Below, piece by piece: positions 26,673-55,450 of a stretch of 64,000 bases of DNA. The stretch lies in the NCBI GenBank assembly GCA_041476565.1, contig JBGOTQ010000002.1, forward strand, positions 773-64,772, read 5' to 3'. This DNA comes from Terriglobia bacterium (GTDB lineage: Bacteria; Acidobacteriota; Terriglobia; Versatilivoradales; Versatilivoraceae). The notes under the pieces are model-generated. The model did not search any database. It saw only the letters and a list, made by a program, of their open reading frames with translations, and had not been told where the DNA came from. The first letter of the stretch is position 1. Each line of letters opens with the position of its first letter. A program made the position numbers and the translations under genes.

Positions 26673-27263
26673 TCATTTTTCGGCTGTTCCCCAAAGATTA
26701 AGCAAAAACTCAAAATACCCGAATTTGACCTTGTTCATGGGAAATCCGGCTATGCCGAAGTACCAGCCTATAAGAGGAAGGGTGTAAGCATAAACGTGTT
26801 CGTCAATCTCCTCAGTGCTCACCAGCCCGAGTCGCGCCATCCGTCTTAGAATTGAATCCGACCAGGCTGCAGGTGTCGTTACGACGAGGATTCCACCCGG
26901 ATGAAGAATCCTATGTATGTCCTTCAGTAGCAGGACGAGCCTGTCTGGATCCAGATGTTCGAGCACAGCGAGCATTGTGACCACACTAAAGAACTGGTCA
27001 GCAAACGGCAGAGAGGTGTTCAGATTCAAGTCCAACGTATGCCACTTGATATCAGAGTAGTCGCTAGATGGTTCTACTTGGTCCACGGCAAACTTCTCTT
27101 TGAAATAGGTGTGGGCCAAGAAATAGGGAGATGAGCCACACCCGATATCCAAAGCCCTTCCTTTACGAAGATGCTCTGGAATAAGAAGATTTGCTCGACG
27201 CGCGCGCAACTTCGCCAAGTAAGGCTCGATAAAGCCGATTCCCCTGGTTGGACGTCTGGACAC
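26673..27263 (-). CDS. class I SAM-dependent methyltransferase
   Basis: SAM motif I is ALDIGCGSSPY, and VLEHLDPD and GGILVV motifs follow. Confidence 0.75.
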   Translation of the reverse strand: MSRRPTRGIGFIEPYLAKLRARRANLLIPEHLRKGRALDIGCGSSPYFLAHTYFKEKFAVDQVEPSSDYSDIKWHTLDLNLNTSLPFADQFFSVVTMLAVLEHLDPDRLVLLLKDIHRILHPGGILVVTTPAAWSDSILRRMARLGLVSTEEIDEHVYAYTLPLIGWYFGIAGFPMNKVKFGYFEFLLNLWGTAEK

Positions 27264-27307
27264 TGGTTCACCTTTACTATCGGTGCAGCACTAGTACCAT
27301 TCTTTCA

Positions 27308-27483
27308 TGAAAATGCGAGTTTTGGTAGCCACGGTTACGGCGCTCTTGGCAGTAACCGTGGGCATTTCTAACTTTTTGAAAAGCCCACGATTGATTCAAG
27401 AAGCGAATCAATCGTGGCTACCCCTGCCACTTTCATCGTGGTGGTGAAGTTGAAACGGTCATGGGGCACTCTTAGGAAAACCC
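27308..27483. repeat. Composite structured repeat, copy IV. It consists of an A module (27318-27429) and a C module (27430-27483).
   Basis: The framework is the same as copy II, with hairpins of different sequence that are still fully paired (cggttac/gtaaccg; cgattgattc/gaatcaatcg). The C module carries ggtcatggggcactct. Confidence 0.7.
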
Positions 27484-27610
27484 TCGGAACACGTGCGCCC
27501 ATACATCATTCAGGAAAGAGGCCGGACCCGCCTGAAAGGGCAATCTTACGCAGAGTGAAGCGTTCGACCATTTGGGGATGCTCGTGTCATGATGTGGATC
27601 ATGGCAATTC

Positions 27611-28504
27611 TCAGTCGACCCTCCTGATTGCGCTTTCGGGAGAGAGTTCTACCATCCCTGTAGATGGGTTAAGCAAATAGCGATACCCTTTAGGATCCAA
27701 AGGGTAACGATTCAACACCCCAATCTGTACCAGTTCTTGTAATGATGATAGGGGTTTCCCCATCTGCCTTTGCACCTTCATTATCAGATTCTGGAGAAGG
27801 TCGATATCATCCTGAGCTGCCAGTGCCAATAGATTCTCTCGCGCATTTTCCTTCACCTGGGAGATAGTAGCTGTTTCATAGGCCTCCTTCCAGAGGAGCT
27901 CTGCAGCCTTACGGCTTCCACCCCTGGCCAGGAGTTCAGCCGCAAAGGTCCTCATCCAAGGCCTGGCATTGGGCTTCTTGCTTCCCTCCAGAAAAGTCTC
28001 GGCTGCCTTTGTATAATCGTGGAGATACCAGTAGTAAACAAAGCCGAGATCCTTGTATAGCAACCACTCCTGGGGATTATGATCAATTCCGTTCTTCAGG
28101 AGGTCTGTGGCCTTCTGGGGTTGATTAGCTCCAATAGGCTCCCGCTCTGAAAGGAATATGGCGCCGAACCGGTAGGCATGCAGGAGGTTCGGATCCAAGG
28201 TGGTCGCAATATTGATGAGAGGCTCCAGCAAATCGAACCGCTTTTCCCCTTGCAATCTCTGGCCACCATAGTACTGCACAGCTCTCATCCAGTAGATATC
28301 CGCCAGGAGTCCATTGTTACCGAGAGAAAGCTTCTTAAGGACTTTTCCGGAAGTGACATAAAGCGCCTCCTCCTTGGACATGTGTTCTCTCATTCTCCTG
28401 TCGATCATTCTCTGTAGATGAACCACAACTAGAGAACTGAAAACCAGGCCAAGGAAAATCATCCACTCCACTCGAAATGCCGGCGAAGCCGCTGTCTTGT
28501 TCAT
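27611..28504 (-). CDS. membrane-anchored TPR-like protein (possible PilG-like partner of the adjacent ABC transporter)
   Basis: It has a single N-terminal TM helix and a helical-repeat periplasmic domain. Its stop abuts the start of the ABC permease. Confidence 0.45.
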   Translation of the reverse strand: MNKTAASPAFRVEWMIFLGLVFSSLVVVHLQRMIDRRMREHMSKEEALYVTSGKVLKKLSLGNNGLLADIYWMRAVQYYGGQRLQGEKRFDLLEPLINIATTLDPNLLHAYRFGAIFLSEREPIGANQPQKATDLLKNGIDHNPQEWLLYKDLGFVYYWYLHDYTKAAETFLEGSKKPNARPWMRTFAAELLARGGSRKAAELLWKEAYETATISQVKENARENLLALAAQDDIDLLQNLIMKVQRQMGKPLSSLQELVQIGVLNRYPLDPKGYRYLLNPSTGMVELSPESAIRRVD

Positions 28505-29278
28505 CTACTTAAAATTTTTCCTCTGAAACACCAATATGGAAAAGAGCAATATGCACGCAGAATAGACAAGACCATACAGTAGGGAATAGAGATAAACCTC
28601 CGACGCTATGAACCCGCCATGGGCCGTCTGTGAGATGATGTCGAAATTCCCAAAATTTGGAAGCAGATAGTACAAGAACTGGGAAAGTGCCTTAGTCAGG
28701 AAAGACATACTTGTTGACCCATAGACTCGTATATCGGTGTTAAAGTGCCCGATTGCATAGAGAGCGAACGTAAAAAGAGCCGAAAGCGCAGGAGTGGAGA
28801 AACTAGAGAAGAGAATGGCAATTGCCACTACCAGCATTAGTTCATCCAGAATAAGAATCCCTGCCAACAAGATATGGATGTCGGAGGAATGAATGGAGTG
28901 TCGCAGATAGAAAATGGAGGCAAAGATTCCCAGAACCATCACTGCGATATTCACGGCCAGCGTGAGAATCAGCCCCAGAAACTTCCCCAGTAGGAATTCG
29001 TAGCGGTGCACAGGCTTTGCCAGGAGACTGTACAGCGTTTTCTTGTCGATCTCTTTGTAAACCAGTTGAATACCGATGAAGATGGCGATCAACGTTCCAA
29101 ATACAGTCAATGTGCTCAGTCCCAGATTAATGATGACCTGGGTGACGTCTCCGATGGTAATCGATCCCAGGATCAAGGAACTGACAATGATGAGGACACC
29201 AAAGAGAACCAGGTTGTAAAGGATCTTGTCCCGAACACATTCTCGAAACGTATTGTGGGCTATTAAGAGGATCTTCAT
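28505..29278 (-). CDS. ABC-2 family transporter permease
   Basis: Six TM helices are predicted. I chose the ATG at 29278 ([11 protein letters not shown]...), which gives an ATGA overlap with the upstream ATPase stop. Confidence 0.75.
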   Translation of the reverse strand: MKILLIAHNTFRECVRDKILYNLVLFGVLIIVSSLILGSITIGDVTQVIINLGLSTLTVFGTLIAIFIGIQLVYKEIDKKTLYSLLAKPVHRYEFLLGKFLGLILTLAVNIAVMVLGIFASIFYLRHSIHSSDIHILLAGILILDELMLVVAIAILFSSFSTPALSALFTFALYAIGHFNTDIRVYGSTSMSFLTKALSQFLYYLLPNFGNFDIISQTAHGGFIASEVYLYSLLYGLVYSACILLFSILVFQRKNFK

Positions 29279-30228
29279 TGGTGTCTTGGTGGGTTGTTTG
29301 TGCCTCCCTGAATGACTTTCAGGAAATAGTCTTCCATTGTCTGGCGGACCGGGTTTACGGAGATAATCTTGCCCTTGGCACACTCGATAGCGGAGACCAG
29401 GGGGTTCAAGTTCGTATCAGCATCGACCTCGATCTTCATGGTGGTTCCCACTTGGCTCACTGAGACTGCCGGTTCTAGCACCTGTCGGAGTTGATCGATT
29501 CCCATTCCGCTGATGATGATTTCCACGTGGCTCACTTGCTTGGATATCAAATCCTTCAGCAGTCCTGCGCCCACAAGCCTTCCCCGGTTCAGAATGGCCA
29601 CCCGGTCGCAAAGAGTCTCGATATCGTTGAGAATGTGACTTGAAAAGAAGACGGTCTTTCCTTCGGCCTTTAGCCGAAGAATAAGATTACGGACCTCACG
29701 CCTCCCAATGGGATCCAGTCCCGACATCGGTTCATCCAGGAAGACAATTTCCGGATCGTTGATCAGGGCCTGTGCAATTCCTGCACGCTGAATCATCCCC
29801 TTGGAAAACTTGCGCAATTGAAGCTTCCTGGCATCGGCAATCCCGGTCAATCTCAAGAAACGGTCGACACGAATCCGTACCTCATAGGAGGAGAAGCCAA
29901 AAAGGCCCGCATAGTAGGTGAGGAATTCCTCTGCTGTCAGGTATTCGTAGAAGTAAGGGTTCTCGGGGAGAAACCCGAGGATACGGTGATTGGAGACATC
30001 CGTGACGGGCTGGCCCAGGATCTCAGCGTGCCCGGAACATGGGTAGATCAACGCCATGAGCAGCTTTAGCGTCGTGGATTTCCCCGCCCCGTTAGGTCCC
30101 AGGTATCCAAAGATCTCATTGCGATGAATCTCCAGGTCCAAGCCGTCCAGGGCGGTCACTGTTCGAGTTTTCCAAAACCCTACCCGGAATTTCTTGCTCA
30201 AGCTGTGAGTGGAGACAACGACGGGCAT
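29275..30228 (-). CDS. ABC transporter ATP-binding protein
   Basis: Walker [10 protein letters not shown], a signature-like FSKGMIQR, Walker B IVFLDEP and an H-loop are present. Confidence 0.9.
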
Positions 30229-30303: not shown

Positions 30304-30336
30304 AAAAAATGGGTGGAGGGGTATCCCTCCACCCTG
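30304..30336 (-). terminator. Rho-independent terminator downstream of the pilin genes
   Basis: On the minus strand the sequence reads GGGTGGAGGG-atac-CCCTCCACCC followed by ATTTTTTTG. Confidence 0.8.
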
Positions 30337-30354
30337 AAGGCGATTTTCTCTTGG

Positions 30355-30807
30355 TTACTCTCCGATTGGGCTGGCGGTAGAGTCAGGTGTACCAGTGAGG
30401 TTGTAACGAATCACTTGAGACTCGTCCGTGAAGTAATAACGCACACCTGAAGCCGTGGGTCCACTAGTAACTTGAGGGTCGGCCGTCGCGGTAAACTGCA
30501 ACGTGGGCGCTGCGCCGGCAACTGCGGCAAAAAGGTAACCGCTCTTCGCGCCACTACCAAGGACGTTGTCAATCACACCATCCTGTGAAAGACCTGTCAA
30601 AGTGGTGAATGCCCCTTGCGAAGAACGATACAACAGTTCTCCGCTTCCAATCGTTCTCATTGAAGCCGTGGCAGATCCCTCATTGGCAGACCTGCGGGCC
30701 TTTAACAAGTTCGGAATTGCAATTGCGGCAATGATCAGAATGATGGCCACCACAATCAACAACTCGATCAGCGAAAACCCCTTGTTTCTCTTCTTTGCTT
30801 TTTTCAT
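30355..30807 (-). CDS. type IVa pilin (prepilin-type N-terminal cleavage/methylation domain)
   Basis: The leader MKKAKKRNKG precedes the cleavage site and FSLIELLIVVAIILIIAAIAIPNLLKA. An AAGGAGA RBS lies upstream of the ATG at 30807. The Ser/Thr-rich C-terminal tail ends ...TGTPDSTASPIGE. Confidence 0.85.
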   Translation of the reverse strand: MKKAKKRNKGFSLIELLIVVAIILIIAAIAIPNLLKARRSANEGSATASMRTIGSGELLYRSSQGAFTTLTGLSQDGVIDNVLGSGAKSGYLFAAVAGAAPTLQFTATADPQVTSGPTASGVRYYFTDESQVIRYNLTGTPDSTASPIGE

Positions 30808-30877
30808 TTGCGTCTCCTTTGTTGGATTGATCATTTGATTTGTGAATTTAAGTTGAGAGAATCCGTCCGTCAATCAC

Positions 30878-31315
30878 CTACTGCATGGGTGGACTGCTGA
30901 GGTCAGCGGACCCTGTCAGGCTGAAACGGACCACCGACGTCTCGTCTCCAAAGTAATAGCGAGCCCCTGAGGCTGATGGGCCCATAGCCAGTACCGGTTC
31001 GGCCGTCACAGTGTACTCGTAAGCGGCCCGAGCCCCCGGTGTCGTGTCAAAGTAGTACCCACTCTTCTCTCCGTTGGCCAGCCTTTGGTCGGTCAGGTAA
31101 TCTGCGCCGAGATCACTAAGAACCCCATAGGTCCCGAAGCTGTTGCGATAAAGACTCTGGGCACTCATGATGGCCCGGATCGATGAGGCTGCAGAAGCCT
31201 CGTTAGCTCTTGCTCTTGCCCCCAGGTAACTTGGAACTGCCATAGCTGAAACAATCATAATAATGGAAAGAACCAGCAAAAGCTCAATGAGTGAAAACCC
31301 CTTGTTGTTTCTCAT
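30878..31315 (-). CDS. type IVa pilin paralogue
   Basis: The leader MRNNKG precedes FSLIELLLVLSIIMIVSAMAVPSYLGA. The C-terminal tail ends ...LTGSADLSSPPMQ. The ORF-track start at 31492 would give an implausibly long leader. Confidence 0.8.
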   Translation of the reverse strand: MRNNKGFSLIELLLVLSIIMIVSAMAVPSYLGARARANEASAASSIRAIMSAQSLYRNSFGTYGVLSDLGADYLTDQRLANGEKSGYYFDTTPGARAAYEYTVTAEPVLAMGPSASGARYYFGDETSVVRFSLTGSADLSSPPMQ

Positions 31316-31589
31316 GACCACGATCCCCGTTCCTTTAGATCCATCGCCAGCACGAACCCAGCTTTGATACTTGAACCCCTTCGCATCTCCTTCAATCCCG
31401 ACGGCTCCCTCTAACTTCATCTTGCGTGTTGACTTGTGCATACGGCTCTCCAAAGTGACAGGGAATATGTGAAATTCGAATTCCTGCAGCAAAATAACTA
31501 TATTCTATTGAAATGCCAAGATTTGTAAATAACGATTTGTCAGAAATCTTTTATCTTCCAGTCCTGTCTTATCCCTCGAGAGCCCGATT

Positions 31590-31634: not shown

Positions 31635-33647
31635 TCAGTTCGGTCGGCCCATTGCAGTGTCGTTCTCATGTCTCTTGAATGGTTGTTGGTACTTGGGTTC
31701 GGAGGGGAACAGGTTCCGAGCCTTCAACCTGGCTTTCTCGGCATCATCCTCTCTTCCTAGTGCCATCAAAATCCGCCCTAGCTCGTAGACCGTTTCAGCA
31801 TTATAAGGGTCAAGCGCTGTAGCTTTCTCGAAGGAATCAAGAACAGATTCAAGGAGTCTCTGGTCCACTCGTTGCTGCTGAATTGCCAGTTGGAGTCGAA
31901 CCTTGGCCTCCAAGGTAATCGCCGCTGGGTTATTTGCATCGAAGTGTAGCGAATCCCTGAGGTCTTCTTGTGCTACATTCAAATGATTCGTGGCCATAGA
32001 GTCCATGCCCTGGTCCAAGGAGGTCTGGGCCAGGTATTGACGCCCGACCAGCCAGGACAAAACGCAAGAAAGTAGCAGACCAATAGTCCATACAGATCTG
32101 GATAGCCAACTGAATGATACAAATCGCAACCTGTCGAAACCCTGCACTCTGACGAGGTTTAGTAACAGGCCAAAAATAAGAATTCCAAGACTTCCTACGC
32201 TTGGGAAGTAAAGGTTAATGTCAATGAGGTTATGGACCCCCCAGGCCGCTAAAGACGAAGCGAGTGCGATGCTTAGAGCTATTCGATTTCCAGTTCCAAA
32301 TTTGAGATGGGGTAAGGGGTCAGTTACATGGGGATTTCTGGAGGGCTGAGCTCTGCGAAGCCGCAGACAACGTGGCGTAATGTGGCCTCGCAGAGCTCGG
32401 CCCTCCACTTGTAAATGACCTATTGCGGGATGGCAATAAGCCGGAGATGGATTCCTGTTTTCCGGGCCCCCGGAGTCTCCTCGGACGGTGTCAAGAAGGA
32501 GTTTTAACGATTGGAACGAGAGCACTAGCAGTCCTGCAGCCAGGATGAAAGCCATCACGCCGACCTCAGAAAGAAGTTGGAGCGGCGTATTATGTGCATA
32601 CTGTGTCACTGTCAGAGGAGAACCTTGGTAGCGTGGGTTGATGGTTCCGTAGTTGCCCAGCCCCACTCCGGTCCATGGGAAGTCCTCAAAGATATACCAT
32701 GCAGTCTTGTAGTTATTCCAACGCAAAACCATGGGGTTCGTGCTCGCGGTTAGATTGCCGAGGCTGAATCCTCGCTTATGAGTCACCCAGGCCATCCAGG
32801 CGCTCAACAGCACGAGAACAAGCACGAGACTGGCTGCAACACGGCGGAGGCGGAGTTTCCGGGGAATTACCATGAGGATCCCGGCGAAAGACACAGAAAC
32901 TAAAACAGAGGCCCATCCCCCGAAGGATTGTGTTAGAAGGAGCACGGCCATAGAAAGCAGGCAACTGCACATCATAAGAGTGCTCATGAGTCGGCTTTTC
33001 CGTATTGGTCCGGGCGCACCACCCATGATGCCCTCACACAAACGCGAACGAGCAATTGCAAAGTAAATTTGAAGAGGCAGAACCGTTGCCAGAAAACCGG
33101 CGAGAGTGTTGGGCAACGGAAAATTGGCGAGAACTCGTCGCGATTGGATTCGCGCCAACACTCTTGACTTGAAGGCCGGCTCAAGAAATGAAGCTTCTTG
33201 GAATTTCTCTCGCAGGTAATCCAGGCCGAAGAAGTACTGGTAAAGAGCAACAAGGCCGACGATTGTGGCTACCAGGCAGACCACTGCCACGGCGCCCTCT
33301 ATTTGTTTGAAATCAAAATCCAGCCAAGTCACGCTCAACAGAAGCAGGAGATAGGCAAGGAACAACCAGAAAACCTCCTGGCTTCGCGTTTTGTTGATGG
33401 AGCCGTACCACGACGGAAGCAAGCAAAGCAACGTCAGCAACGAAATCTTCAAAGAACGGGAAATGAAGTCATTCACGCCCTGTTGGTGTCGATATAACAA
33501 GGCTAGGAGAAAAGCCAAAAATGAGGTGAGGATGAAAAGGAATCTAGAATGATGAAAAACCTCTCCAGGATAAAACTGATTAACTGCGATCGGAAACAGA
33601 ATTACACCCACTAGCACGGCAGTCTTGAAATGGGGGTGTGCAGTCAT
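31635..33647 (-). CDS. O-antigen ligase (Wzy_C) domain protein fused to C-terminal TPR repeats; candidate PglL/TfpO-like O-oligosaccharyltransferase
   Basis: The Wzy_C signature loop WTGVGLGNYG...YAHNTPLQLLSEVGVMAF follows about 10 TM helices, and the C-terminus carries a TPR domain. I chose the start at 33647 (MTAHPHFK...), just after the upstream gene stop. Confidence 0.7.
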   Translation of the reverse strand: MTAHPHFKTAVLVGVILFPIAVNQFYPGEVFHHSRFLFILTSFLAFLLALLYRHQQGVNDFISRSLKISLLTLLCLLPSWYGSINKTRSQEVFWLFLAYLLLLLSVTWLDFDFKQIEGAVAVVCLVATIVGLVALYQYFFGLDYLREKFQEASFLEPAFKSRVLARIQSRRVLANFPLPNTLAGFLATVLPLQIYFAIARSRLCEGIMGGAPGPIRKSRLMSTLMMCSCLLSMAVLLLTQSFGGWASVLVSVSFAGILMVIPRKLRLRRVAASLVLVLVLLSAWMAWVTHKRGFSLGNLTASTNPMVLRWNNYKTAWYIFEDFPWTGVGLGNYGTINPRYQGSPLTVTQYAHNTPLQLLSEVGVMAFILAAGLLVLSFQSLKLLLDTVRGDSGGPENRNPSPAYCHPAIGHLQVEGRALRGHITPRCLRLRRAQPSRNPHVTDPLPHLKFGTGNRIALSIALASSLAAWGVHNLIDINLYFPSVGSLGILIFGLLLNLVRVQGFDRLRFVSFSWLSRSVWTIGLLLSCVLSWLVGRQYLAQTSLDQGMDSMATNHLNVAQEDLRDSLHFDANNPAAITLEAKVRLQLAIQQQRVDQRLLESVLDSFEKATALDPYNAETVYELGRILMALGREDDAEKARLKARNLFPSEPKYQQPFKRHENDTAMGRPN

Positions 33648-33657
33648 GAACCATCCG

Positions 33658-35490
33658 CTAATTCTTACCCTGGGCGTTGATCTTTTGATAACTGGCAGCC
33701 AGCTTCTGGTCAAAACGGGTAATCTCAGGCCCATTGCCTTCCACGAGCATTCTCCCTGCTTCCCATGCTTTCACTGCGTCTAACAATTGACCCTTTTCCT
33801 CCAAAACCCTTCCCAGCAGCCAGTATCCGTCAGGGGCTTGCGGGGATTTCCCCACAATCAGGCGCGCCGCCTCTTGGGCACGGGACAGCTGTTTTGTGTT
33901 CAAGTAAAAATTGGCAATACGATAAAAGGCACTGAGGTTTCCCGGGTTTATGTAAGTTGCCCTGTAGAACATGTAGAGGGCGCGAAGAAGATCGCCTTTT
34001 TCGGCATAGACTAGACCCAAGCCTTCAACTTCGACATCGGAGTTGGGCGCTGCGTTACTGGCTGAACGGTAGTATTTTTCAGCCAAATCCAAGCGTCCCT
34101 TTTGGAGGTAATATCCACCCAGGCCCTTCAGCGCAAAGTTAAAGTCCGGCCTCAACTCACAGGCAATTTGATATTGTAAACCCGCGGCATTGAACTGTCC
34201 CCGGGAGGCAAGCCATTCGCCCAAGTTGCAGTGGGCTAGACTCGATGTGAAGTTCTTTCTGGTTACGTCGGTCCAGAGAGTATAACTGGTCTTCCATGTC
34301 TGGCTGTATTGGAAAGCTCTGACCCAGAGCGTCCCTCCCATCAAACAGAGCACCCCTATCCATGCGATTCTCAACACGCCGTAATGGGCGAGTCGCTTCA
34401 CTGAACGAAGTACCAGATACGAGACGAGGCACCAGATCCCAATTTGTGGGATATAGAGATAACGGTTCGCCATCCTGACCGGGAGTGGGACAAGGTTGAG
34501 AACAGGTATGAGGAATATGACAAAGAACCAGAGCGCGAACTGCAGTCGCCGGTTCAAATAACCCAGGCCAGCAATGGTCAACAACGCAAGCACCAGCGAG
34601 AGCCAGAGTCCAACGTCAGCCCAAACCGGCGGATCCCCTGATCGATAGATCGCGCTGAGCTTAAAGGGAAAGAACAACAATCCAAGATAATCCCAGAATA
34701 ACCGGCCAAAACCCAGGAGGCTCAAAATGGATCCACCGCCGTGATAGGAACGCAGGGAGTTGCCTGATCCGGCAGCGTAGACGGTTGTAAACGCCAGCAC
34801 TTCGGCAGGAATAAGATAAGGTAACTTTTCATACAATTTCAATTCGCGCAGTTTCTCTCCCTTCATTCCGTAATCAAAAGCCAGGTAGATTGCCGGAGCC
34901 ACAATAGTACCGGCCTTGGAGAGAATCGAAAGCAGGAAAAAGAGAATGCTGCACAAGTAAGAGGTTCGGGATTGCTCTTGCCTGTAGCGAATATAGAAGT
35001 AGAACGACAAAAGGAAGAATAGGGCTGACAACAACGTTTTCCGCTCCGAAGCCCAGCTCACCGCTTCCACATTCACTGGATGGAAGGCAAAGAGGGCTAC
35101 CGTCAAGAGGGCTGCATCAGATCGGATTTGAGCGGTTCGCAACACCAGCAGCAGTGTCAATACACAACCAAGATGGATCCCTACGTTCAACAGGTGAGAA
35201 GCGTTTGCATTCAGCTTGAAAAGATGGAAATCGATCAGGTAAGAAAAAAGCGTAACCGGGGCGTAATTGCTGAAATAAGGTTGTGTAAGAATTCGGTTCA
35301 GATTGCCCAGCGAAACAATGTGAATCAGTGGGTTTTCTGTGATGTAGGTAGGGTCGTCCCAGTTCGTATACTCTTTTGGCAACGACCCTAGGTAGAGGGC
35401 GATGGTGGCCAGCAGGATTGCAACCAGTACCATCGAATGAGATCTAGAGGGGCTCTCCTTCATGGGGTTATTAGCGATCCAGCGACCCAC
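33658..35490 (-). CDS. GT39/PMT-like (TMTC-like) membrane glycosyltransferase with C-terminal TPR repeats
   Basis: The N-terminal polytopic domain has a WDD-containing first loop (NWDDPTYITENP), typical of protein O-mannosyltransferase-like GT-C enzymes. The C-terminal ~200 aa form TPR units. Confidence 0.65.
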   Translation of the reverse strand: MGRWIANNPMKESPSRSHSMVLVAILLATIALYLGSLPKEYTNWDDPTYITENPLIHIVSLGNLNRILTQPYFSNYAPVTLFSYLIDFHLFKLNANASHLLNVGIHLGCVLTLLLVLRTAQIRSDAALLTVALFAFHPVNVEAVSWASERKTLLSALFFLLSFYFYIRYRQEQSRTSYLCSILFFLLSILSKAGTIVAPAIYLAFDYGMKGEKLRELKLYEKLPYLIPAEVLAFTTVYAAGSGNSLRSYHGGGSILSLLGFGRLFWDYLGLLFFPFKLSAIYRSGDPPVWADVGLWLSLVLALLTIAGLGYLNRRLQFALWFFVIFLIPVLNLVPLPVRMANRYLYIPQIGIWCLVSYLVLRSVKRLAHYGVLRIAWIGVLCLMGGTLWVRAFQYSQTWKTSYTLWTDVTRKNFTSSLAHCNLGEWLASRGQFNAAGLQYQIACELRPDFNFALKGLGGYYLQKGRLDLAEKYYRSASNAAPNSDVEVEGLGLVYAEKGDLLRALYMFYRATYINPGNLSAFYRIANFYLNTKQLSRAQEAARLIVGKSPQAPDGYWLLGRVLEEKGQLLDAVKAWEAGRMLVEGNGPEITRFDQKLAASYQKINAQGKN

Positions 35491-36478: not shown

Positions 36479-36486
36479 TTCGGTTC

Positions 36487-38510: not shown

Positions 38511-38719
38511 AGATCAGCTATGGCCACGGAACCACACTGAAACACACGGCGAACCTTGCAATCATGCCTTATCAGAAGCAGCGGTGTAGCCGTCCAAAGA
38601 TATATGCGTGTCAGACCGAAAGCCTGGATTGTTTTTGGCCTCAGCCATAGTCTGAGTTAGAGGTAAAGCAGTACTCAAGGGCTTGCTTCCGTGTACTTCT
38701 GTGTGTTTCCGTGGCCAGT

Positions 38720-48853: not shown

Positions 48854-50035
48854 TTATGAGTTCTGGATCTCACGATAGATACACGCTAGGCGCCCTGCTT
48901 GCGTCACTGCATTGTATTCTGCTTCCACGTGTCGACGGCCCTGCATGCCCATCTCGGGCCATTTCTCCGGGTTCTCAACCAGCCAAAAAAGATTATTTAC
49001 TATCCCTTCAACGTCTCGTTCTTCGGCCAAGAGTCCACTCTGGCCATGTTTCACAATCGCGGGGATATCGCAATGGTATGTACTGACAACCGGCATTCCT
49101 GTAGCCAATACTTCAATGAGACTTACTGGCGCACCACCTTCAGTGTCACCGTCGATTGACGTTATACTGGGAGACAAAAAGATGTGATGTCGATAACACT
49201 CTTCCAGAAAAACATTATAAGGCTGAAACCCCAGCAGCCTCGTTGTGTTACGCATTCTGTACCTATCGATTGTGTCTAGGATTCTTTGTTTTTCAGAATG
49301 GTTGCGAGATTCGTGGTCGGCATCACCGATAATAGTTGTGGTAATTGGAACATCCTGCTGCAGGCGTCCCAGGGCTTCCAAGGCGTAAGGGATACCTTTC
49401 TTCTCCCGGAACGAGGCAGCTATTAGCACGCGCAAGTCTTCTGAACGCTCCCAGAACCTTGGTCTAAAATCGATGCAGTGGACAGGCACACCAAGATGAT
49501 GAACCTTAACCAGAGCCGGAGGGCACCCCAATTCCACCAGACATTGTGCCATGTGCGGCCCCTCGCATAAGACGCCATCAACTTGGTCAAATAACTCCAT
49601 GTACCTTTCCCTCCAGACGGCATCCTGCCTTGGGAGATAGTTTACGTCCAGCCCGTAAAAACTGACAAGGTGCCTGAGTCCAGACTGCTTTGCGGCTTTG
49701 GAGTTAATCCAGCCGACATTACCGAAATGAGAGTGAAGAATCTTGGCATGATGTTGTCGTGCGGCTCGAATCAAAAATCCAAGATGCCGCCGGACCCCAA
49801 ATTTCCGCATGGCCCTGTCAAAATATTGCATGTAAAAGGGAACCTCGGCAAAAGCATGCAAGTTGGCTATGGGGAATTGCTGTAGATTCAAGGTCTCTCG
49901 GCAGAGGATATGACTCTCTACTGTGGACGGCAACAGCCGGATTTGATGGTAAAGCCAGGGTTGGGTTTGCGGCAGCCAGCAAGGAACGTCATGGCACACT
50001 ACAACTCTATTGTCTATCTTGGATTTGACAGCCAT
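48854..50035 (-). CDS. GT4 (group 1) glycosyltransferase
   Basis: The EGGAPVSLIEVLATGMPVVST motif is typical of GT4 enzymes. Confidence 0.85.
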   Translation of the reverse strand: MAVKSKIDNRVVVCHDVPCWLPQTQPWLYHQIRLLPSTVESHILCRETLNLQQFPIANLHAFAEVPFYMQYFDRAMRKFGVRRHLGFLIRAARQHHAKILHSHFGNVGWINSKAAKQSGLRHLVSFYGLDVNYLPRQDAVWRERYMELFDQVDGVLCEGPHMAQCLVELGCPPALVKVHHLGVPVHCIDFRPRFWERSEDLRVLIAASFREKKGIPYALEALGRLQQDVPITTTIIGDADHESRNHSEKQRILDTIDRYRMRNTTRLLGFQPYNVFLEECYRHHIFLSPSITSIDGDTEGGAPVSLIEVLATGMPVVSTYHCDIPAIVKHGQSGLLAEERDVEGIVNNLFWLVENPEKWPEMGMQGRRHVEAEYNAVTQAGRLACIYREIQNS

Positions 50036-50277
50036 TGTTCTTTCCTTGCTTCTCCAACCGACTCGATGAAATGTGACAGTGGCTTAGAGACACCGGACCA
50101 CCCCCTCATGCCATATGGATCGTCATCTCCATGTCGTGCAGAGAGGAACAAGCATTGGTGGCAAACCAAGCCTTAGTTTGTCGAAATCGGATAGGAAGCC
50201 CATGTATGACTCTTGCTTGGTTATTGGACTTCATACCCTAGGCATTAATCCAGAAAACAAAAGGCATCACATGTTCT

Positions 50278-51759
50278 CTAAATCTGTTCTCGGAGCATAT
50301 CAAGCAAGCGAACAGATTGCTGGCGATTGATGAACCAACTCGAAACCAAGTATACAATTCCTCCCACAGCAACCATTAGCGTCAGTGCGGCAAAGGAAGG
50401 GATCCTGAAAACAAAACGGGCCTTGAGGAAAGAAAGCACTACATACATCACTAGGCTGCTTGCGAAAGGGCGCCAAAGTGTGACGGCAAGGTCGGCGACC
50501 GGGAGGTCGATTAAACGAAAGGAAATAACAAAACTTGGACCCGCCAAGATGAAAGACATGACAGCATAGCAGGTCGCAACGCCGTAAATGCCCCAGCGCA
50601 ATCCCACCAGAAATGAAATGATTGTCAGCACACCGGCGACGACTCCCCAACGAAGCATCAGATCTGTTCTTCCTTTAGCCTGATAAATAGCTCCAACTGT
50701 AGTTCCGATTGATTGGATCATGCCTACTGGCACCAAAATTAACAAGAGCTTGGGGACAGGTGCCCATTGCGGTCCAAACACGGTGAAGACAAACAGGTCA
50801 CGGGTGACGAGCAAGCCGAATGCCATAGGAAAAGAGAGGAACGCAATCGCGCTAGACACATTCAAGTATGCACGTCGAAATCGCGATTCCGTGTCTTGGA
50901 GTTGCGAGTAGACAGGAAACATGACTCTCCCCACCACATCTGACATGACTTGGATGGGATAGTACATAATGCGATAGGCCAAAGCGTAGAAACCCAGATT
51001 GCCTGGGCCAAGATACCTCCCGATCAGGAAGTTGTCCGCATTTCTCGCAAGGTAATTGAAGATATTAAAGCCGGTCAAGTTCAGGCTGTACCAGCCAATG
51101 GTTTTGACGGCCGACGCCTTAAAAACGAACCGGGGAGCCCAAGGGCTAAGGATCCACTGCAGTACCGATGTGACTAGGACAATTGTCAGGGTCTGAAAGA
51201 TTAGACTCCAACTGCCTGCTCCCCAATAAGCCAGCCCAATGCCGACCGGAGCACCAACCGCGACAGCGGCCATCTCAGTCTTTGCAATGGTGTGAAAAGC
51301 CAACTGTCGTTGCATTAATGCTTGTTGTACAGTACTGAAGCTGGAAATCAAGAAAGTGAACGCGAGCACCTTGAGCATGAGGACGATCCGCGTATCGTGA
51401 AAAAGTATTCCAAACACCGGAGAGAGCACAACAAGACCTCCCGTGGCTGCGAAGCCTATGGCAACGTTGGTCCAAAACACGCTCGAAGCTATCTCTTCGG
51501 GGAGATCCCGCGCCTGGATGATGGCCGCCGAAGTACCCAAGTCTCTGATGAGTCCCAAAAACCCGACAGCAATGGTTGCCATCCCCACCAGTCCGAAATC
51601 CGTCGGTGTTAAGAGACGGGCCAGGATGACCACGGAGGCGAAATGCAGAAATTGTTTTCCGATGTTTGAGACAAATGACCATTTGACCCCAGAAGAAGCA
51701 GACTGTCTTAGACTCACAATGACTTCTTTCTGGCGACCACAAGGTACATCAATGTCCAT
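50278..51759 (-). CDS. wzx: Wzx-like oligosaccharide flippase (MOP superfamily polysaccharide biosynthesis protein)
   Basis: It has 12-14 TM helices and a Wzx-type N-terminus, VKWSFVSNIGKQFLHFASVVILARLLTP. Confidence 0.8.
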   Translation of the reverse strand: MDIDVPCGRQKEVIVSLRQSASSGVKWSFVSNIGKQFLHFASVVILARLLTPTDFGLVGMATIAVGFLGLIRDLGTSAAIIQARDLPEEIASSVFWTNVAIGFAATGGLVVLSPVFGILFHDTRIVLMLKVLAFTFLISSFSTVQQALMQRQLAFHTIAKTEMAAVAVGAPVGIGLAYWGAGSWSLIFQTLTIVLVTSVLQWILSPWAPRFVFKASAVKTIGWYSLNLTGFNIFNYLARNADNFLIGRYLGPGNLGFYALAYRIMYYPIQVMSDVVGRVMFPVYSQLQDTESRFRRAYLNVSSAIAFLSFPMAFGLLVTRDLFVFTVFGPQWAPVPKLLLILVPVGMIQSIGTTVGAIYQAKGRTDLMLRWGVVAGVLTIISFLVGLRWGIYGVATCYAVMSFILAGPSFVISFRLIDLPVADLAVTLWRPFASSLVMYVVLSFLKARFVFRIPSFAALTLMVAVGGIVYLVSSWFINRQQSVRLLDMLREQI

Positions 51760-52484
51760 TGTTCGGTTCTATCAATTCTGTCCACCCCGAAGGATATAAG
51801 CTGAGTGAGTAGTCCCACAAGGTCGACAAGGTGCAACCAGCGGAGAGGCCCGCGATTGAAGCGATAAAGGTTATACACAAATAGTTGCCCAAAGGTGCCC
51901 CAAAATCCTGAAAGAGCATTGATCTCGACGATCTCAAACCCAACCTTCTCAAATAGATATTTCAATCCATACCTACTGAACCTAAAGAAGTCTCGAGGTT
52001 CCTCATGAAGGTGCCAGATGAACGGGACAGTATACAGAGCATATCCACCAGCCCGCAAAAGGCGATGGCATTCCCGAAGCGCTACCTCTGGCTCCTCAAG
52101 GTGCTCCATGACCGATGTGCACAACACCGAGTCAAATGACTGGTCATCAGCGGGAATTCTGTAAGCCGTTCCCCAAAGGTCAACATCCTTTGGGCCATGA
52201 AGAGTACCAGAATGGTCAATTCCGATGTGTTCAGTCACCAAGGATGAAAGCACTTGCCTGAAAGGCTTGGTTCCACAGCCGATATCGATGAGTCTGCCGC
52301 AGAGATACTTCTTTGCGGCTCTAACGACTTCGCGATCGTGAATATAGTGGACTAACAAGTTTCTGATTTGGCGTACCACAGTCTTCCTACCCAGGGTGTG
52401 AAGCTGCTTGACGTCACGAGCCGGGTCAAGCCTAAGATGGATAAGACAAATTACATCGCGCCGTCCCAAGGTTTCAGGAGCCAA
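51714..52484 (-). CDS. class I SAM-dependent methyltransferase
   Basis: Motif I is LIDIGCGTKPF, with CTSVMEHLEEP and RAGGYALYTVP. Confidence 0.8.
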   Translation of the reverse strand: MAPETLGRRDVICLIHLRLDPARDVKQLHTLGRKTVVRQIRNLLVHYIHDREVVRAAKKYLCGRLIDIGCGTKPFRQVLSSLVTEHIGIDHSGTLHGPKDVDLWGTAYRIPADDQSFDSVLCTSVMEHLEEPEVALRECHRLLRAGGYALYTVPFIWHLHEEPRDFFRFSRYGLKYLFEKVGFEIVEINALSGFWGTFGQLFVYNLYRFNRGPLRWLHLVDLVGLLTQLISFGVDRIDRTEQWTLMYLVVARKKSL

Positions 52485-52629: not shown

Positions 52630-53163
52630 TCAAGACTCCGTTTTCTTATAGGCAATGCAGCTTGCGGAGGCACTCAGCCTTTGCCACTTAGTCACTTTGA
52701 GCAGGAGTGAGACGAAGTACCGTTCAGCCTGGCTGTTGCCAAAGAAACTTCGTGGGGAGTTCCAGGGGACGATCCTCTCAAACCCTTTCGAAGATAACAA
52801 ATGGACCAATTCTCGAGGGGAATACATGTGAAGGTGCGTAGGATCAGCGCTTCGTTCAGCCTTGTTGAACCGGCTAGGTGAAGCCACAAACAACATTCCT
52901 CCGGGACGCAGCACCCGACGAGTTTCCTCCAGGCACGTGACGGCGACCCCGGGTTCCAGATGTTCGATCACTTGGTTGCATACAACTGTCTGAAAGATGG
53001 CATTCCCAAAAGGAAATGGCTGGCTCAACATATGCAACAGAATCTGAACCCCCGGGCATCGAACCTGGGCCGCCTCGATAGCCTTGCTAGATCCTTCTAA
53101 ACCTTCACAATTCAAACCCCAACGCACGGCACACTCAACAAATAGTCCAATTCCTGCTCCCAC
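52630..53163 (-). CDS. class I SAM-dependent methyltransferase; the start is unresolved and it may be frameshifted or a pseudogene
   Basis: The GTG called as start is the Val inside motif I (ILD-V-GAGIG). The frame stays open upstream to 53349 (…YFERFYSSRDWRFYRDILSLIVRFSEPGPILDVGAGIG) with no ATG, GTG or TTG. That extension overlaps the 3' end of the 53307.. gene in another frame. Confidence 0.55.
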   Translation of the reverse strand: MGAGIGLFVECAVRWGLNCEGLEGSSKAIEAAQVRCPGVQILLHMLSQPFPFGNAIFQTVVCNQVIEHLEPGVAVTCLEETRRVLRPGGMLFVASPSRFNKAERSADPTHLHMYSPRELVHLLSSKGFERIVPWNSPRSFFGNSQAERYFVSLLLKVTKWQRLSASASCIAYKKTES

Positions 53164-53306
53164 ATCCAGGATCGGACCTGGCTCAGAGAATCTGACGATC
53201 AGGGAGAGTATATCCCTGTAAAATCTCCAATCTCGAGACGAATAGAATCGTTCGAAGTACTGCCCTGTTCCGATTCCCCCATTAATGGAGTATTGCTGTG
53301 ACGTAG

Positions 53307-53912
53307 CTATGTTTTTCTCCCAGCCATGATGGAAATTCGTTCTCCAAGATCAAAATAGTCATGCAAATGCGCAAGATGTACAAAAGGGAACATCAGTTCA
53401 TAATCGCCGAATTGTCGAAACACCCAGTGCGTCCCGTTTTGCAAGGGAGAAGTATTCTCGACCAGGAACAAAAGGCCCCTATCTTTCAAAACCCTTCTAA
53501 TTTCAGCAATTGTGTTGACCAGAGTGATGCCAACTATGCCGCCTAACACAAGACAAGACCATACAACGTCCACTGACTTATCACAGAGTGGAATGTTCCC
53601 CTCTTTCATGATTTTGTATTCCACATTCGGAGTTTTGGGTGCCATGGCGATCAATGCGGGAATGGGATCAGCACCTATTACCAAGCCTCCATTGATAATT
53701 GAAGCCAGTTCCGAGCTGAACCGCCCAGGGCCACAGCCAAGGTCGAGAATCACTTTGTCTGATGGCAGCAGAACTTGCTGGAGACAAGGGAAAATCTCTT
53801 TGTGCTGAAAATCTGTAATAGCGTCGTATTCATTTTGGCCGTGGTTTATATTCAGAACAGCTCTTTTGCCATAACACTTTACCCGGCTCTGCCAGTAAGA
53901 GACCCCTGTCAA
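53307..53912 (-). CDS. class I SAM-dependent methyltransferase
   Basis: Motif I is ILDLGCGPGRF. The ORF-track start at 54107 would overlap the DegT gene by 142 bp. An internal TTG at 53912 with an upstream GGAAG is the more likely start. Confidence 0.7.
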   Translation of the reverse strand: MTGVSYWQSRVKCYGKRAVLNINHGQNEYDAITDFQHKEIFPCLQQVLLPSDKVILDLGCGPGRFSSELASIINGGLVIGADPIPALIAMAPKTPNVEYKIMKEGNIPLCDKSVDVVWSCLVLGGIVGITLVNTIAEIRRVLKDRGLLFLVENTSPLQNGTHWVFRQFGDYELMFPFVHLAHLHDYFDLGERISIMAGRKT

Positions 53913-53965
53913 TTCTTGCTTCCGACGGAAGCTGAGCCAAATCCATCTTTCGATGATTCTTCGGA

Positions 53966-55159
53966 TTAACGATCTTTCCACAATATAGTTGACGTGACCG
54001 CCTGAACAACGTCCTGCCTGTCCTGGGTATATAGCTTCGGAGACAACGGTAGGCTCACAGTCTTCCTCCCGATGCACATTGCATTCGGGTAGTCTTCGGG
54101 TTTCCAATCAAAGGTACTTTGGTAGTATGGGTGTTCGGGAATACTCAAGTAGTGCACCCCCACTCCGATGTTTTCCCTGGTCATGGCCTCAAGAAATTGG
54201 TCTCGTTCAATCCCGGCGTGTACAGGGTCGATTAGAATGGTATAGAGATGATAGGCATGTCGTATCCACGGCTCGGGATCTGAGGGTAAACCGACGGGTA
54301 ATTCGCTTAAGGCTTGATTATAGTAATTCCAGATCTCACGTCGGCGAAACCAGTTCTGATCCACCCGTGCCAGTTGGTGGATTCCAATGGCGGCTTGGAG
54401 GTCCATCATGTTGTATTTGAACCCGCATTCCACCACCTGATAATGCTTGTATCCCTCATCACTGTAGCGTTTCCAGGCGTCATGGCTCATTCCATGGAGA
54501 GCCAGCACCTTGATGCGAGCTGAATCTTCTTCCCTCCGGGCAAGTACCATTCCCCCTTCCCCAGTAACTACGTTCTTGGTCACATAAAAGCTGAAACACC
54601 CAAAATCTCCAAACGTGCCCACTTTGCGCCCCTTGTATTCAGCTTCAATGGCGTGGGCGCAGTCCTCTATGACCTTCAAGCCGTGACTCTCGGAAATCGA
54701 ACACAAGGAATCCATGTCACAGGATCTGCCAGCAAAATGAACAGGCAGGATGGCACGCGTTCTGGGGGTAATCCTGGCTTCCACCTGTGCCGGATCGATG
54801 GTCATAGTCCTGGGATCCACGTCAGCCAGCACAGGAGTGGCCCCTGCATGGATGATGGCATTGACGGTAGCACAAAAGGTCAAGGCAGAAGTAATGACCT
54901 CGTCGCCCGCCTTGATGCCCGCAGCAAGCAGGCTGAGATGCAGGGCAGCCGTGCAGGAGTTGACTGCGACCGCAAATTCCGCACCTTTGTAAGCCGCGAA
55001 TTCCCTTTCGAATTGGGCCACCTTGGGCCCGGTTCCCAGCCATCCCTTCTTCAGGGAGTCTACAACTTCCTCAATTTCAGCGTCTTCAATAACCGGAGCG
55101 CCAAAGACTAGAAACCTGTCTTTGGTCCGAACGGGGCGGAATTCCTTCTTATTCTTCAT
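53966..55159 (-). CDS. DegT/DnrJ/EryC1/StrS-family PLP-dependent sugar aminotransferase
   Basis: The conserved DEVITSALTFCAT motif and the PLP-lysine region SFYVTKNVVTGEGG are present. I chose the start at 55159 (MKNKKEF...). Confidence 0.85.
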   Translation of the reverse strand: MKNKKEFRPVRTKDRFLVFGAPVIEDAEIEEVVDSLKKGWLGTGPKVAQFEREFAAYKGAEFAVAVNSCTAALHLSLLAAGIKAGDEVITSALTFCATVNAIIHAGATPVLADVDPRTMTIDPAQVEARITPRTRAILPVHFAGRSCDMDSLCSISESHGLKVIEDCAHAIEAEYKGRKVGTFGDFGCFSFYVTKNVVTGEGGMVLARREEDSARIKVLALHGMSHDAWKRYSDEGYKHYQVVECGFKYNMMDLQAAIGIHQLARVDQNWFRRREIWNYYNQALSELPVGLPSDPEPWIRHAYHLYTILIDPVHAGIERDQFLEAMTRENIGVGVHYLSIPEHPYYQSTFDWKPEDYPNAMCIGRKTVSLPLSPKLYTQDRQDVVQAVTSTILWKDR

Positions 55160-55450
55160 AGAGTGCCTCAAGAGTTCTCTCAATAGCATGACTCCCGAGG
55201 AAAATGGTTTACGAAGATGGGGGCCACGCTCCGACCGGGCATCGAGCCCTGTCCGGCGGACTTGCCGCGCAGGAGTGCGGCTCCCACTTTGAAGAGCCCA
55301 TTTTCACGTAGGTACCTTAAGTATGGACAATCTGCTCCAACCATCCTTAGAATGAAACTCTGAATGGACCTTTCGGGCATAACCTGCGAATCTAGCCCGA
55401 AGGTTAGCTATCTCAAGACTCACAGATCGTAAGATAATCGACCCAACTGC

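Follow-up and report, generated by a model that had tools for sequence, protein, structure and literature searches.

Background

What is a glycan for when the genes that would build it lie in the middle of a type IV pilus locus? The question is raised by a stretch of 64,000 nucleotides from a Terriglobia bacterium of the phylum Acidobacteriota (GenBank assembly GCA_041476565.1, contig JBGOTQ010000002.1, positions 773 to 64,772 of the forward strand), which we refer to as the window. Its minus strand carries a long run of glycosyltransferase, methyltransferase and pilin genes (26673-55189) that an initial annotation had proposed to be an island for the O-glycosylation of pilins with a heavily methylated oligosaccharide. 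On the basis of synteny and folds, our assessment comes down slightly in favour of an acidobacterial type IV pilus locus with two-route pilin O-glycosylation, one route depending on a Wzy_C-domain enzyme with tetratricopeptide repeats (Wzy_C-TPR) encoded directly upstream of two pilin genes, the other on an adjacently encoded glycosyltransferase of the GT-C type that also carries repeats (GT-C-TPR).

To our knowledge, nearly all that is known of pilin glycosylation comes from a few pathogens among the Proteobacteria. There it influences how pili are assembled and how phages are resisted, and it supplies enzymes for conjugate-vaccine engineering. Bacterial GT-C-TPR proteins that resemble the eukaryotic TMTC enzymes form a large family which we believe to be largely uncharacterised. 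Several precedents bear on the locus described here. Four known classes of pilin-adjacent Wzy_C enzymes are O-oligosaccharyltransferases (PMC9829042, PMC3643930), and PglL homologues adjoin pilins in 21 of 31 cases (PMC3643930). According to a review, C-terminal TPR motifs occur in the protein O-oligosaccharyltransferases PglL and WsfB, and methylated protein-linked glycans have a precedent in the S layer, where the methyltransferase domain of WsaE caps the glycan (PMC2943079). Lastly, TfpW, a pilin-adjacent GT-C enzyme whose DDX motif is essential and whose TPR domain is periplasmic, arabinosylates the pilin of Pseudomonas aeruginosa (bioRxiv 10.1101/2020.04.19.049825).

Results

A Wzy_C-TPR enzyme of the O-antigen ligase superfamily

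The enzyme on which the question turns is a membrane protein of 670 amino acids (31635-33647, minus strand) whose true start is M30 of the open reading frame (ORF); this start and that of the GT-C-TPR protein were corrected from database-identical proteins (P0001 and P0077). Domains were called by scanning the ORFs of the whole 64-kb window with Pfam and NCBIfam profiles, which gave a Wzy_C match (PF04932, 5.7e-19), and the same domain was detected in all 43 homologues. The AlphaFold (AF2) model (pLDDT 86.7) has the ligase WaaL (7TPG) as its best fold match in the PDB (Foldseek E 5e-5, TMt 0.61). A single-sequence phmmer search of the PDB with the Wzy_C transmembrane domain returned no match; a profile of ten homologues truncated to that domain reached 7TPG (E 5e-9), and in the profile alignment R309 and H352 stand opposite R265 and H313 of CmWaaL. 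R171, R309, H352 and D476 are invariant across the 43 homologues. The protein belongs to the O-antigen ligase/Wzy_C superfamily. It is predicted to have about 13 transmembrane helices, and helix parity, counted from a cytoplasmic N-terminus, would place both the loop bearing the Arg/His pair and the TPR domain after the thirteenth helix in the periplasm. An Arg/Pro-rich insert of about 55 amino acids with low pLDDT (residues ~400-445; 32313-32450, minus strand) falls in a predicted cytoplasmic loop; it is confined to this protein and its closest homologue (P0002) and is missing from all other family members.

The earlier description of a Wzy_C protein with repeats beside two pilins was right as to the Wzy_C domain, the repeats and the pilins, with the correction that the TPR signal comes from two adjacent genes, Wzy_C-TPR and GT-C-TPR. 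These genes and the pilins do not lie next to the flippase gene and its neighbours, as had been stated: Wzx is separated from the Wzy_C gene by 17 kb.

Two pilin genes directly downstream

Both pilin genes follow the Wzy_C gene on the minus strand and encode prepilins with a G/FSLIELL cleavage site. The nearer paralogue (type A; 30878-31318; N_methyl 1.4e-8) has a mature length of 139 amino acids and the tail TGSADLSSPPMQ. The second (type B; 30355-30810; N_methyl 1.7e-9) is PilA-like: its leader is MKKAKKRNKG, followed by FSLIELL, its mature form has 140 amino acids and no Cys, its tail reads TGTPDSTASPIGE, and a strong Shine-Dalgarno sequence precedes its gene. Its top NCBIfam match is the Myxococcus-type PilA, and many of its homologues are called PilA by JGI. 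Both types are conserved in mature length (139-141 amino acids), in the absence of Cys from most members and in tails rich in Ser, Thr, Ala, Gly and Pro. The type A paralogue is present in most related loci with a tail of the form ADSSSPPI(Q). For type B, 111 PilA homologues yield the tail consensus AA[TD]SxSx[AP]IG[NDE], in which two Ser are 85-89% conserved.

The pilin pair may form a transcription unit of its own. In the 316-bp gap upstream of it lies a sigma-70-like promoter, TTTACA-16-TAGAAT (31502-31529, minus strand), which is a consensus match only (10/12) and the best in a 10-kb scan. No sigma-54 promoter of the kind found in Myxococcus and Geobacter was seen upstream of the pilins, sigma-54 matches in the window being no more frequent than expected by chance. 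Directly after the PilA-like gene stands an intrinsic terminator (30311-30334, minus strand) with a 10-bp stem of which eight pairs are GC, followed by ATTTTTTTGT. Being bracketed by a promoter-like site and a strong terminator, the pilins could be expressed independently of the enzymes.

A GT-C-TPR enzyme and its putative donor synthase

Upstream of the Wzy_C gene, with only 10 bp between its end and the Wzy_C start, lies the gene for a GT-C glycosyltransferase of 591 amino acids with C-terminal TPR (33658-35433, minus strand). It has the transmembrane arrangement of the GT-C fold, with an 11-helix GT-C domain. The acidic DD motif follows the first helix directly, within NWDDPxYIxxNP, and across 46 homologues D26 is invariant and D27 is conserved in at least 90%. 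The protein also carries an HPxxxE-type motif (consensus LFAxHPxNVESV), a conserved Lys after a transmembrane helix, and a TPR domain that analogy and the helix count would place in the periplasm. Distant full-length homologues match PMT_2, and many of them are named "protein O-mannosyl-transferase" by JGI. The protein itself has no Pfam match to DUF1736, and an hhalign comparison of its family with the other GT-C protein of the block (PMT2_650, described below) was not significant. In architecture it matches both TfpW and the TMTC enzymes. Conserved equally with Wzy_C-TPR, it is a second candidate pilin-modifying enzyme.

A possible source of its donor is a GT2 protein of 279 amino acids without transmembrane helix (36487-37326, minus strand; true start probably near 37221), a putative polyprenyl-phosphate sugar synthase of the DPM1/PpgS/AglJ kind. 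Its best PDB matches are the dolichyl-phosphate mannose synthase of Pyrococcus (5mlz, 5e-10) and ArnC (8e-4); the nearest NCBIfam models are AglJ, PpgS, a dolichyl-phosphate hexose transferase and PgfS, all matched far below their curated cut-offs. At the level of family, it is probably a synthase feeding the GT-C enzymes. The donor of GT-C-TPR is probably a hexose or N-acetylhexosamine made by this GT2, because the window holds no genes of the DprE1/E2 type for D-arabinofuranose.

The arrangement is conserved across acidobacterial loci

Fifteen distinct related loci were compared by tblastn with every protein of the window, to which all identities refer. About 70 homologues of Wzy_C-TPR were found at 34-73% identity, about 600-660 amino acids long; the few with a named source come from metagenome-assembled genomes (MAGs) of Acidobacteriota or Terriglobia. 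The core order of WecA, GT4, GT2, the methyltransferase MT324, GT-C-TPR, Wzy_C-TPR, two to three pilins, an ABC ATPase, an ABC-2 permease and a 297-amino-acid protein is complete in 11 loci and partial in three short ones, and one further locus (L007) is a variant without the three last genes. Wherever the surrounding sequence is informative (14 of 14 loci), the pilins lie directly downstream of the Wzy_C gene and GT-C-TPR lies upstream. YfhO and recA usually stand beyond the core. The initial annotation had suggested a synteny check of the pilins, Wzy_C-TPR and the methyltransferase and glycosyltransferase genes, and its outcome is that the core is kept in related loci, the distal methyltransferases being mostly lineage-specific. 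The Wzy_C gene is tied to pilin genes both physically and evolutionarily.

Conservation is uneven along the core. The GT2 putative synthase (83-90% identity) and WecA (72-85%) are conserved at the level of RecA (80-82%). The pilins, ABC proteins and 297-amino-acid protein show about 60-70% identity, the core GT4 46-56% and the MT324 orthologue 48-53% in all related loci, and the two TPR enzymes about 38-49%.

How far does the linkage extend? In an exhaustive profile search the pilin-linked clade stands apart by bit score (at least 693 versus at most 499). The wider family of Wzy_C-TPR proteins of about 600 amino acids comprises 2,817 clusters at E<=1e-30, a figure partly inflated by TPR-only matches. 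Three distant homologues (P0070, P0075 and P0072; at most 32% identity) have no pilin linkage, so the linkage is a property of this clade and does not generalise to the superfamily.

Two peculiarities of the sample deserve mention. In the variant locus (L007; MFD04492 MAG; 11890-13569, 17513-21789) a second GT-C-TPR paralogue lies between the Wzy_C gene and the pilins, and the site after the pilins that the ABC genes occupy elsewhere is taken by DegT and MT256. Five MAGs (L004, L010, L014, L015 and L016) are labelled 'Acidimicrobiia' (Actinomycetota); since their proteins share 60-85% identity with those from Acidobacteriota-labelled MAGs, they are probably mislabelled.

A polyprenol-linked glycan assembly locus

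The block itself is, as first described, a near-continuous run on the minus strand: 26 consecutive ORFs spaced by -142 to +347 bp, the widest gap being 347 bp. Its reported initiator, flippase and aminotransferase are borne out by Pfam and NCBIfam matches. The initiator (38720-39745) is a polyprenyl-phosphate N-acetylhexosamine-1-phosphate transferase of the WecA/MraY family with nine transmembrane helices (PF00953, 3.6e-35; WecA model 9.3e-27, below the curated cut-off). The flippase Wzx (50278-51759) matches PF13440 Polysacc_synt_3 (2.4e-82) and a MOP flippase model above its cut-off. The DegT-family sugar aminotransferase (53966-55189; PF01041, 1.3e-127) has ArnB and PseC as its nearest models, both below their cut-offs. 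DegT, the ArnC-like GT2 and a PMT_2 protein together might suggest an Arn-type lipid A modification set; this was not adopted, since ArnA and ArnD equivalents are lacking and the scores fall far below equivalog cut-offs.

Glycosyltransferases of families GT2 and GT4 are present as claimed, in a smaller number: seven, not eight or more. Three are GT2 (36487-37326, 43552-44487 and 44683-45696), three are GT4 (37323-38510, 41860-42939 and 48854-50035) and one is a GT4-like protein of 422 amino acids (46774-48042), all on the minus strand; the tally reaches nine only when the two GT-C enzymes (39833-41785, PMT_2; 33658-35433, GT-C-TPR) are added. The count of eight class-I S-adenosylmethionine-dependent methyltransferases was accurate, as were the zinc ribbons of two of them, MT324 and MT236, each with two N-terminal CxxC pairs. 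The reported lack of a chain-length regulator and polymerase also holds: apart from the Wzy_C protein, the ORFs scanned across the 64 kb include no Wzz, polysaccharide co-polymerase (PCP), outer membrane polysaccharide export protein (OPX/Poly_export) or second Wzy. Nor do they include any waa gene or other gene for the lipopolysaccharide (LPS) core, the remaining genome lying outside this window. These results support a locus that assembles a polyprenol-linked glycan and has neither Wzz nor PCP nor OPX. To treat the entire block as glycan machinery goes too far, as four genes at its 3' end (the ABC ATPase, the ABC-2 permease, the 297-amino-acid protein and the methyltransferase MT196) have no evident glycan role. 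Eight methyltransferases among 26 genes, together with pilin adjacency in every informative related locus, are far beyond chance.

The block is not an island. GC content is flat at 0.48-0.53 throughout, so that the region is compositionally not distinct, no tRNA gene is present, no integrase was found among the scanned ORFs, and the core is syntenic across the phylum, which together rule out a mobile or horizontally acquired element. The block is a conserved chromosomal core locus in which only the distal cassette varies, and the term 'island' is misleading.

Conserved core and variable cassettes

Beside the initiator, the core contains a GT4 (37323-38510, minus strand; Glycos_transf_1 1.8e-34) and MT324 (35546-36520, minus strand; Methyltransf_23 9.6e-28), whose CxxC pairs lie at residues 20 and 43 and which ends in a single transmembrane helix (281-299). 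An ORF of 112 amino acids (38562-38900, minus strand) overlaps the WecA-like gene at its 3' end and matches only colipase, at chance level; it is probably not a gene.

Beyond the initiator stands PMT2_650, an ArnT/PMT-like GT-C protein of 650 amino acids with an extra N-terminal domain of about 190 (39833-41785, minus strand; PMT_2 7.2e-6, just above the Pfam cut-off), which gave no tblastn match in any fetched locus. Its slot is filled in three relatives (L001-L003) by a gene for an asparagine-synthase-like (AsnB-like) amidotransferase of 630-656 amino acids, as though one cassette had been swapped for another while the region around it stayed syntenic. A semi-conserved module of GT4_359, MT200 and GT2_311 follows (41860-44487, minus strand; Pfam); its order is kept in L006, L009 and L010, GT4_359 alone occurs in L012, L014 and L016, and identities are 50-69%. 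Then comes a variable cassette (44683-48792, minus strand; Pfam) of GT2_337, MT328, the GT4-like protein, for which L023 holds a 43% match, and MT236 with its zinc ribbon. GT4_393, Wzx and MT256 (48854-52484, minus strand; Pfam/NCBIfam) precede two lineage-specific methyltransferases, MT177 and MT266 (52630-54107, minus strand; Pfam), and DegT. The order DegT-MT256-Wzx-GT4_393 is found again in four metagenome contigs (L017, L019, L022 and L023), with a weaker case in a fifth (L024), and most of these genes show 49-77% identity; DegT itself is 73-77% identical in L017-L024 and 67% in L007.

Among the eight methyltransferases, three have orthologues in the sampled relatives. MT196 (26673-27263, minus strand; Methyltransf_23 2e-13), the terminal gene of the block, MT266, MT177, MT236 and MT328, like GT2_337, gave paralogue-level matches only, with no orthologues in the fetched loci. 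In this comparison the five methyltransferases and the PMT_2 gene are lineage-specific, and the richness in methyltransferases is largely a lineage elaboration of a conserved core. A heavily methylated glycan is plausible, provided that the methyltransferases act on the glycan. In MT177 (52630-53300, minus strand) no stop codon interrupts the frame for about 45 codons before the called GTG, and this stretch encodes the segment expected ahead of motif I; it holds no ATG, GTG or TTG, which could reflect a non-canonical start codon, decay of the gene or an error of assembly.

An ABC module downstream of the pilins

Directly downstream of the PilA-like gene, three genes (27611-30228, minus strand) encode an ABC ATPase (ABC_tran 2.9e-24), an ABC-2 permease (ABC2_membrane_2 2.1e-14) and a single-helix protein of 297 amino acids with no relative in Pfam, NCBIfam or the PDB. 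Their spacings of -4 and 0 bp indicate translational coupling. Among the 14 distinct loci that have downstream sequence, 12 carry the trio after the pilins, its full-length copies being about 60-69% identical; the sequence of L005 stops within the ATPase gene, and L007 is the variant without the trio. In Myxococcus xanthus, PilG, PilH and PilI are needed for pilin export (PMC3724824) and pilus assembly (PMC3724824, PMC6060248), and there too an ABC ATPase, an ABC-2 permease and a third protein are encoded directly downstream of pilA. By position and domain composition, the trio resembles a PilH/PilI/PilG-like pilus biogenesis module. A glycan exporter of the Wzm/Wzt type was considered and is ruled out by the pilin linkage, the preceding terminator, the coupling to a conserved third protein and the presence of Wzx.

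The flanks of the block

On one side the block is bounded by recA and three convergent multi-helix proteins (17895-26646), on the other by lolA, pilC, pilB and pilMNO (55451-62320), which sets the glycan genes between the pilins and the type IV pilus assembly genes pilC, pilB, pilM, pilN and pilO (56857-62320, plus strand; T2SSF 3.5e-57, T2SSE 1.8e-132, and PilM_2, PilN and PilO matches). A gene for a 23S rRNA-intervening-sequence protein (58126-58488, plus strand; PF05635, 4.7e-38) is inserted between pilC and pilB of the assembly operon. The three convergent proteins (19872-26646, plus strand) are YfhO-like (849 amino acids; YfhO 6.1e-18), Alg9/LIC_10190-like (729 amino acids; Glyco_transf_22 9.8e-4, weak) and without family (564 amino acids), and are candidate additional polyprenyl-phosphate-sugar-dependent transferases. 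YfhO next to recA is kept in relatives; the 729- and 564-amino-acid proteins gave no tblastn match in any fetched locus. Counting PMT2_650 and GT-C-TPR, up to five GT-C-type candidates lie within 22 kb.

Discussion

A model of two-route pilin glycosylation

From the domain and fold assignments, the conserved catalytic residues and the conserved gene order we infer the substrates, the pilin as acceptor, the site of modification and the action of the methyltransferases. In the first route, the WecA-like transferase would begin the glycan on undecaprenyl phosphate on the cytoplasmic side of the membrane, GT4 and GT2 enzymes would extend it, DegT would contribute an aminosugar and the methyltransferases would modify the product, which Wzx would then flip to the periplasm. 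There Wzy_C-TPR, through its WaaL fold and the His352/Arg309 pair, would move the oligosaccharide en bloc to Ser or Thr of the pilin, with the periplasmic TPR as acceptor-docking domain and the conserved Ser-rich C-terminal tail as the likely site. In the second route, the DPM1/PpgS-like GT2 would make a polyprenyl-phosphate monosaccharide, and GT-C-TPR, by means of the DD motif in periplasmic loop 1, would use it in the periplasm to add sugar either to the pilin itself, in the manner of TfpW, or to the glycan already transferred; the same donor may also serve PMT2_650 and the YfhO-like neighbours. The downstream ABC trio would serve PilHIG-like pilus biogenesis and not glycan export.

We lean towards this two-route reading because pilin linkage is invariant in the clade, both enzymes carry TPR, genes for an LPS core, co-polymerase or export are lacking from the 64 kb, and pilin-adjacent Wzy_C enzymes have precedents. 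A bolder form of it is more doubtful, and we offer it tentatively: that Wzy_C-TPR (~600-670 amino acids, periplasmic TPR) is a fifth class of bacterial O-oligosaccharyltransferase working in tandem with a TfpW/TMTC-like GT-C-TPR, and that the pilins of a whole abundant soil phylum are doubly O-glycosylated on the Ser-rich tail [TD]SxSx[AP]IG[NDE], with a glycan whose core is conserved and whose outer part is variable and, in this genome, multiply methylated.

Weighing the alternatives

Several observations weigh against two-route pilin glycosylation. The comparison with PglL and TfpO made at the outset stands as far as pilin adjacency and the absence of LPS-core genes nearby are concerned, and fails elsewhere: none of the 43 family members has a PglL_A or any other PglL-specific Pfam match (Wzy_C_2 is weak in three, below the curated cut-off), the size of the enzyme (670 amino acids, 600-660 in relatives, with TPR) and its position upstream of the pilins are not those of TfpO and TfpM, and the pilins do not end in a Ser/Thr acceptor (102 of the 111 PilA homologues end in N, D or E and one in T; the two pilins of the window end in E and Q). 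Since it fails these defining tests of PglL, TfpO and TfpM, Wzy_C-TPR, a candidate en-bloc O-oligosaccharyltransferase, would be a variant outside all three definitions. No solved structure separates ligase, polymerase and protein transferase, and the sole structural relative is WaaL. Neither a 4,6-dehydratase nor an acetyltransferase that could serve the DegT substrate was found in the window, nor was a flippase for an undecaprenyl-phosphate sugar. Co-transcription of the pilins with the glycan enzymes is not required. Pilin decoration in other bacteria is hypervariable; here, WecA and the GT2 are conserved at the level of RecA, which fits a housekeeping envelope glycan better. Finally, the sampled relatives are MAGs or metagenome contigs throughout.

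That conservation, typical of essential envelope functions, is also what lends weight to the main rival, which we judge unlikely: an ordinary envelope-glycan locus that merely lies beside pilus genes, with Wzy_C-TPR as a WaaL-type ligase acting on lipid A-core or another lipid, and the GT-C enzymes decorating LPS or another polymer in the manner of ArnT, GtrC or YfhO. WaaL is the closest relative in structure and sequence, DegT, the ArnC-like GT2 and PMT_2 recall the Arn set, and the pilins appear to form their own transcription unit. Yet no waa gene occurs in the 64 kb, the Arn set would lack its ArnA and ArnD equivalents, and the WaaL protein compared is of about 400 amino acids and without TPR, whereas TPR is reported in protein-directed Wzy_C enzymes (PMC2943079). 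Moreover, pilin adjacency is invariant among loci at 80-82% RecA identity and absent from the distant Wzy_C-TPR homologues.

Another reading is a system of general protein O-glycosylation, comparable to those of Neisseria, Burkholderia and Bacteroidota, in which both TPR enzymes would modify many periplasmic or surface proteins and pilins would be only the most abundant clients. Strong conservation of the initiating enzymes beside a variable outer cassette recalls known general systems, in which the core glycan is conserved, TPR domains are suited to recognising a wide range of acceptors, and the very large superfamily of ~600-amino-acid Wzy_C-TPR proteins is not pilin-linked in the three distant cases sampled. 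Strict pilin linkage within the clade suggests instead a dedicated pairing, as with TfpO, TfpM and PglS (PMC9829042), and the locus conserves no other candidate acceptor gene; we regard a general system as quite improbable. Lower still do we rate a Wzx/Wzy-dependent exopolysaccharide locus, with Wzy_C-TPR polymerising repeat units of a polymer for pilus-dependent motility or biofilm. Polymerases also carry Wzy_C domains, Wzx is present, and pilus function and exopolysaccharide production are genetically coupled in Myxococcus (PMC3724824); against this, the partners expected of a Wzy polymerase (Wzz/PCP or OPX/Wza) are missing from the 64 kb, the invariant His and Arg stand opposite the catalytic residues of the ligase, and a periplasmic TPR has no explanation in a polymerase. 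This makes a polymerase very improbable.

Significance

The arrangement is uncharacterised, and the pili of abundant soil bacteria are probably decorated by the locus. If two-route pilin glycosylation is true, it would extend pilin glycosylation to the Acidobacteriota, among the most abundant soil bacteria, and add a new oligosaccharyltransferase class with built-in TPR acceptor docking and a new C-terminal sequon. Pilin glycosylation enzymes of the Wzy_C and the GT-C type would for the first time be known from adjacent genes, and the bacterial TMTC-like GT-C-TPR proteins would gain a concrete, testable substrate. The expansion of methyltransferases points to pilus glycans that are hydrophobic and capped by methyl groups; such glycans could influence how the cells adhere to soil particles or evade phages.

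Comparison with known systems

The literature searched contained no account of glycosylated pilins in Acidobacteria and none of this set of genes, in agreement with the earlier statement that the block matches no characterised glycosylation locus. The known systems nonetheless share parts of it. TfpO (PilO) and TfpM of Pseudomonas, Acinetobacter and Moraxella are likewise Wzy_C enzymes encoded next to their cognate pilin, with a catalytic His and periplasmic transfer of a glycan from undecaprenyl pyrophosphate (PMC9829042). They have about 425-460 amino acids and no TPR, their gene lies downstream of the pilin and their acceptor is a C-terminal Ser/Thr; the enzyme described here has 670 amino acids with about 13 transmembrane helices and TPR, its gene lies upstream, and its pilins do not end in Ser or Thr. 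PglL and PglS of Neisseria, Burkholderia and Acinetobacter share the Wzy_C domain with its conserved Arg/His set, are often pilin-adjacent, and modify Ser in low-complexity regions of Ala, Pro and Ser (PMC3643930), to which the Ser-rich pilin tails may be compared. In contrast, neither PglL_A nor PglL_B was detected in the 43 members here, and there is no significant sequence similarity beyond Wzy_C.

In the S-layer glycosylation (slg) clusters of Paenibacillus and Geobacillus, a Wzy_C protein has C-terminal TPR (WsfB) or a neighbouring TPR protein (WsaA/WsaB), glycosyltransferases are combined with a methyltransferase that O-methylates the glycan, and an asparagine-synthase homologue is present, as in the acidobacterial relatives (PMC2943079). 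These systems, compared by description and not by sequence, differ in being Gram-positive, in their S-layer acceptors and, in Geobacillus, in Wzm/Wzt ABC export.

TfpW of P. aeruginosa (Pa5196/PA7), compared by architecture and not by sequence, is encoded beside pilA and uses a polyprenyl-phosphate sugar as donor; unlike there, the DprE1/E2-like genes for D-arabinofuranose are absent from the window and the Wzy_C gene separates GT-C-TPR from the pilins. The eukaryotic O-mannosyltransferases TMTC1-4 of the GT-C/PMT clan share the DD motif in extracellular loop 1, the HPxxxE-type motif, the Lys after a transmembrane helix, and an 11-helix GT-C domain followed by luminal, here presumably periplasmic, TPR (PMC7801869); GT-C-TPR differs in having no DUF1736 match and in its bacterial context. 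PilG, PilH and PilI of M. xanthus match the trio downstream of pilA in order, domains and coupling, a likeness of position and domains and not of sequence, the 297-amino-acid protein being without family match. As for WaaL of Cupriavidus metallidurans (7TPG), the best fold match (TMt 0.61) with catalytic Arg and His aligned, its chain of 403-413 amino acids has no TPR and its acceptor is lipid A-core, whereas the Wzy_C-TPR enzyme has an extra transmembrane helix and a TPR domain and is linked to pilin genes, not to waa genes.

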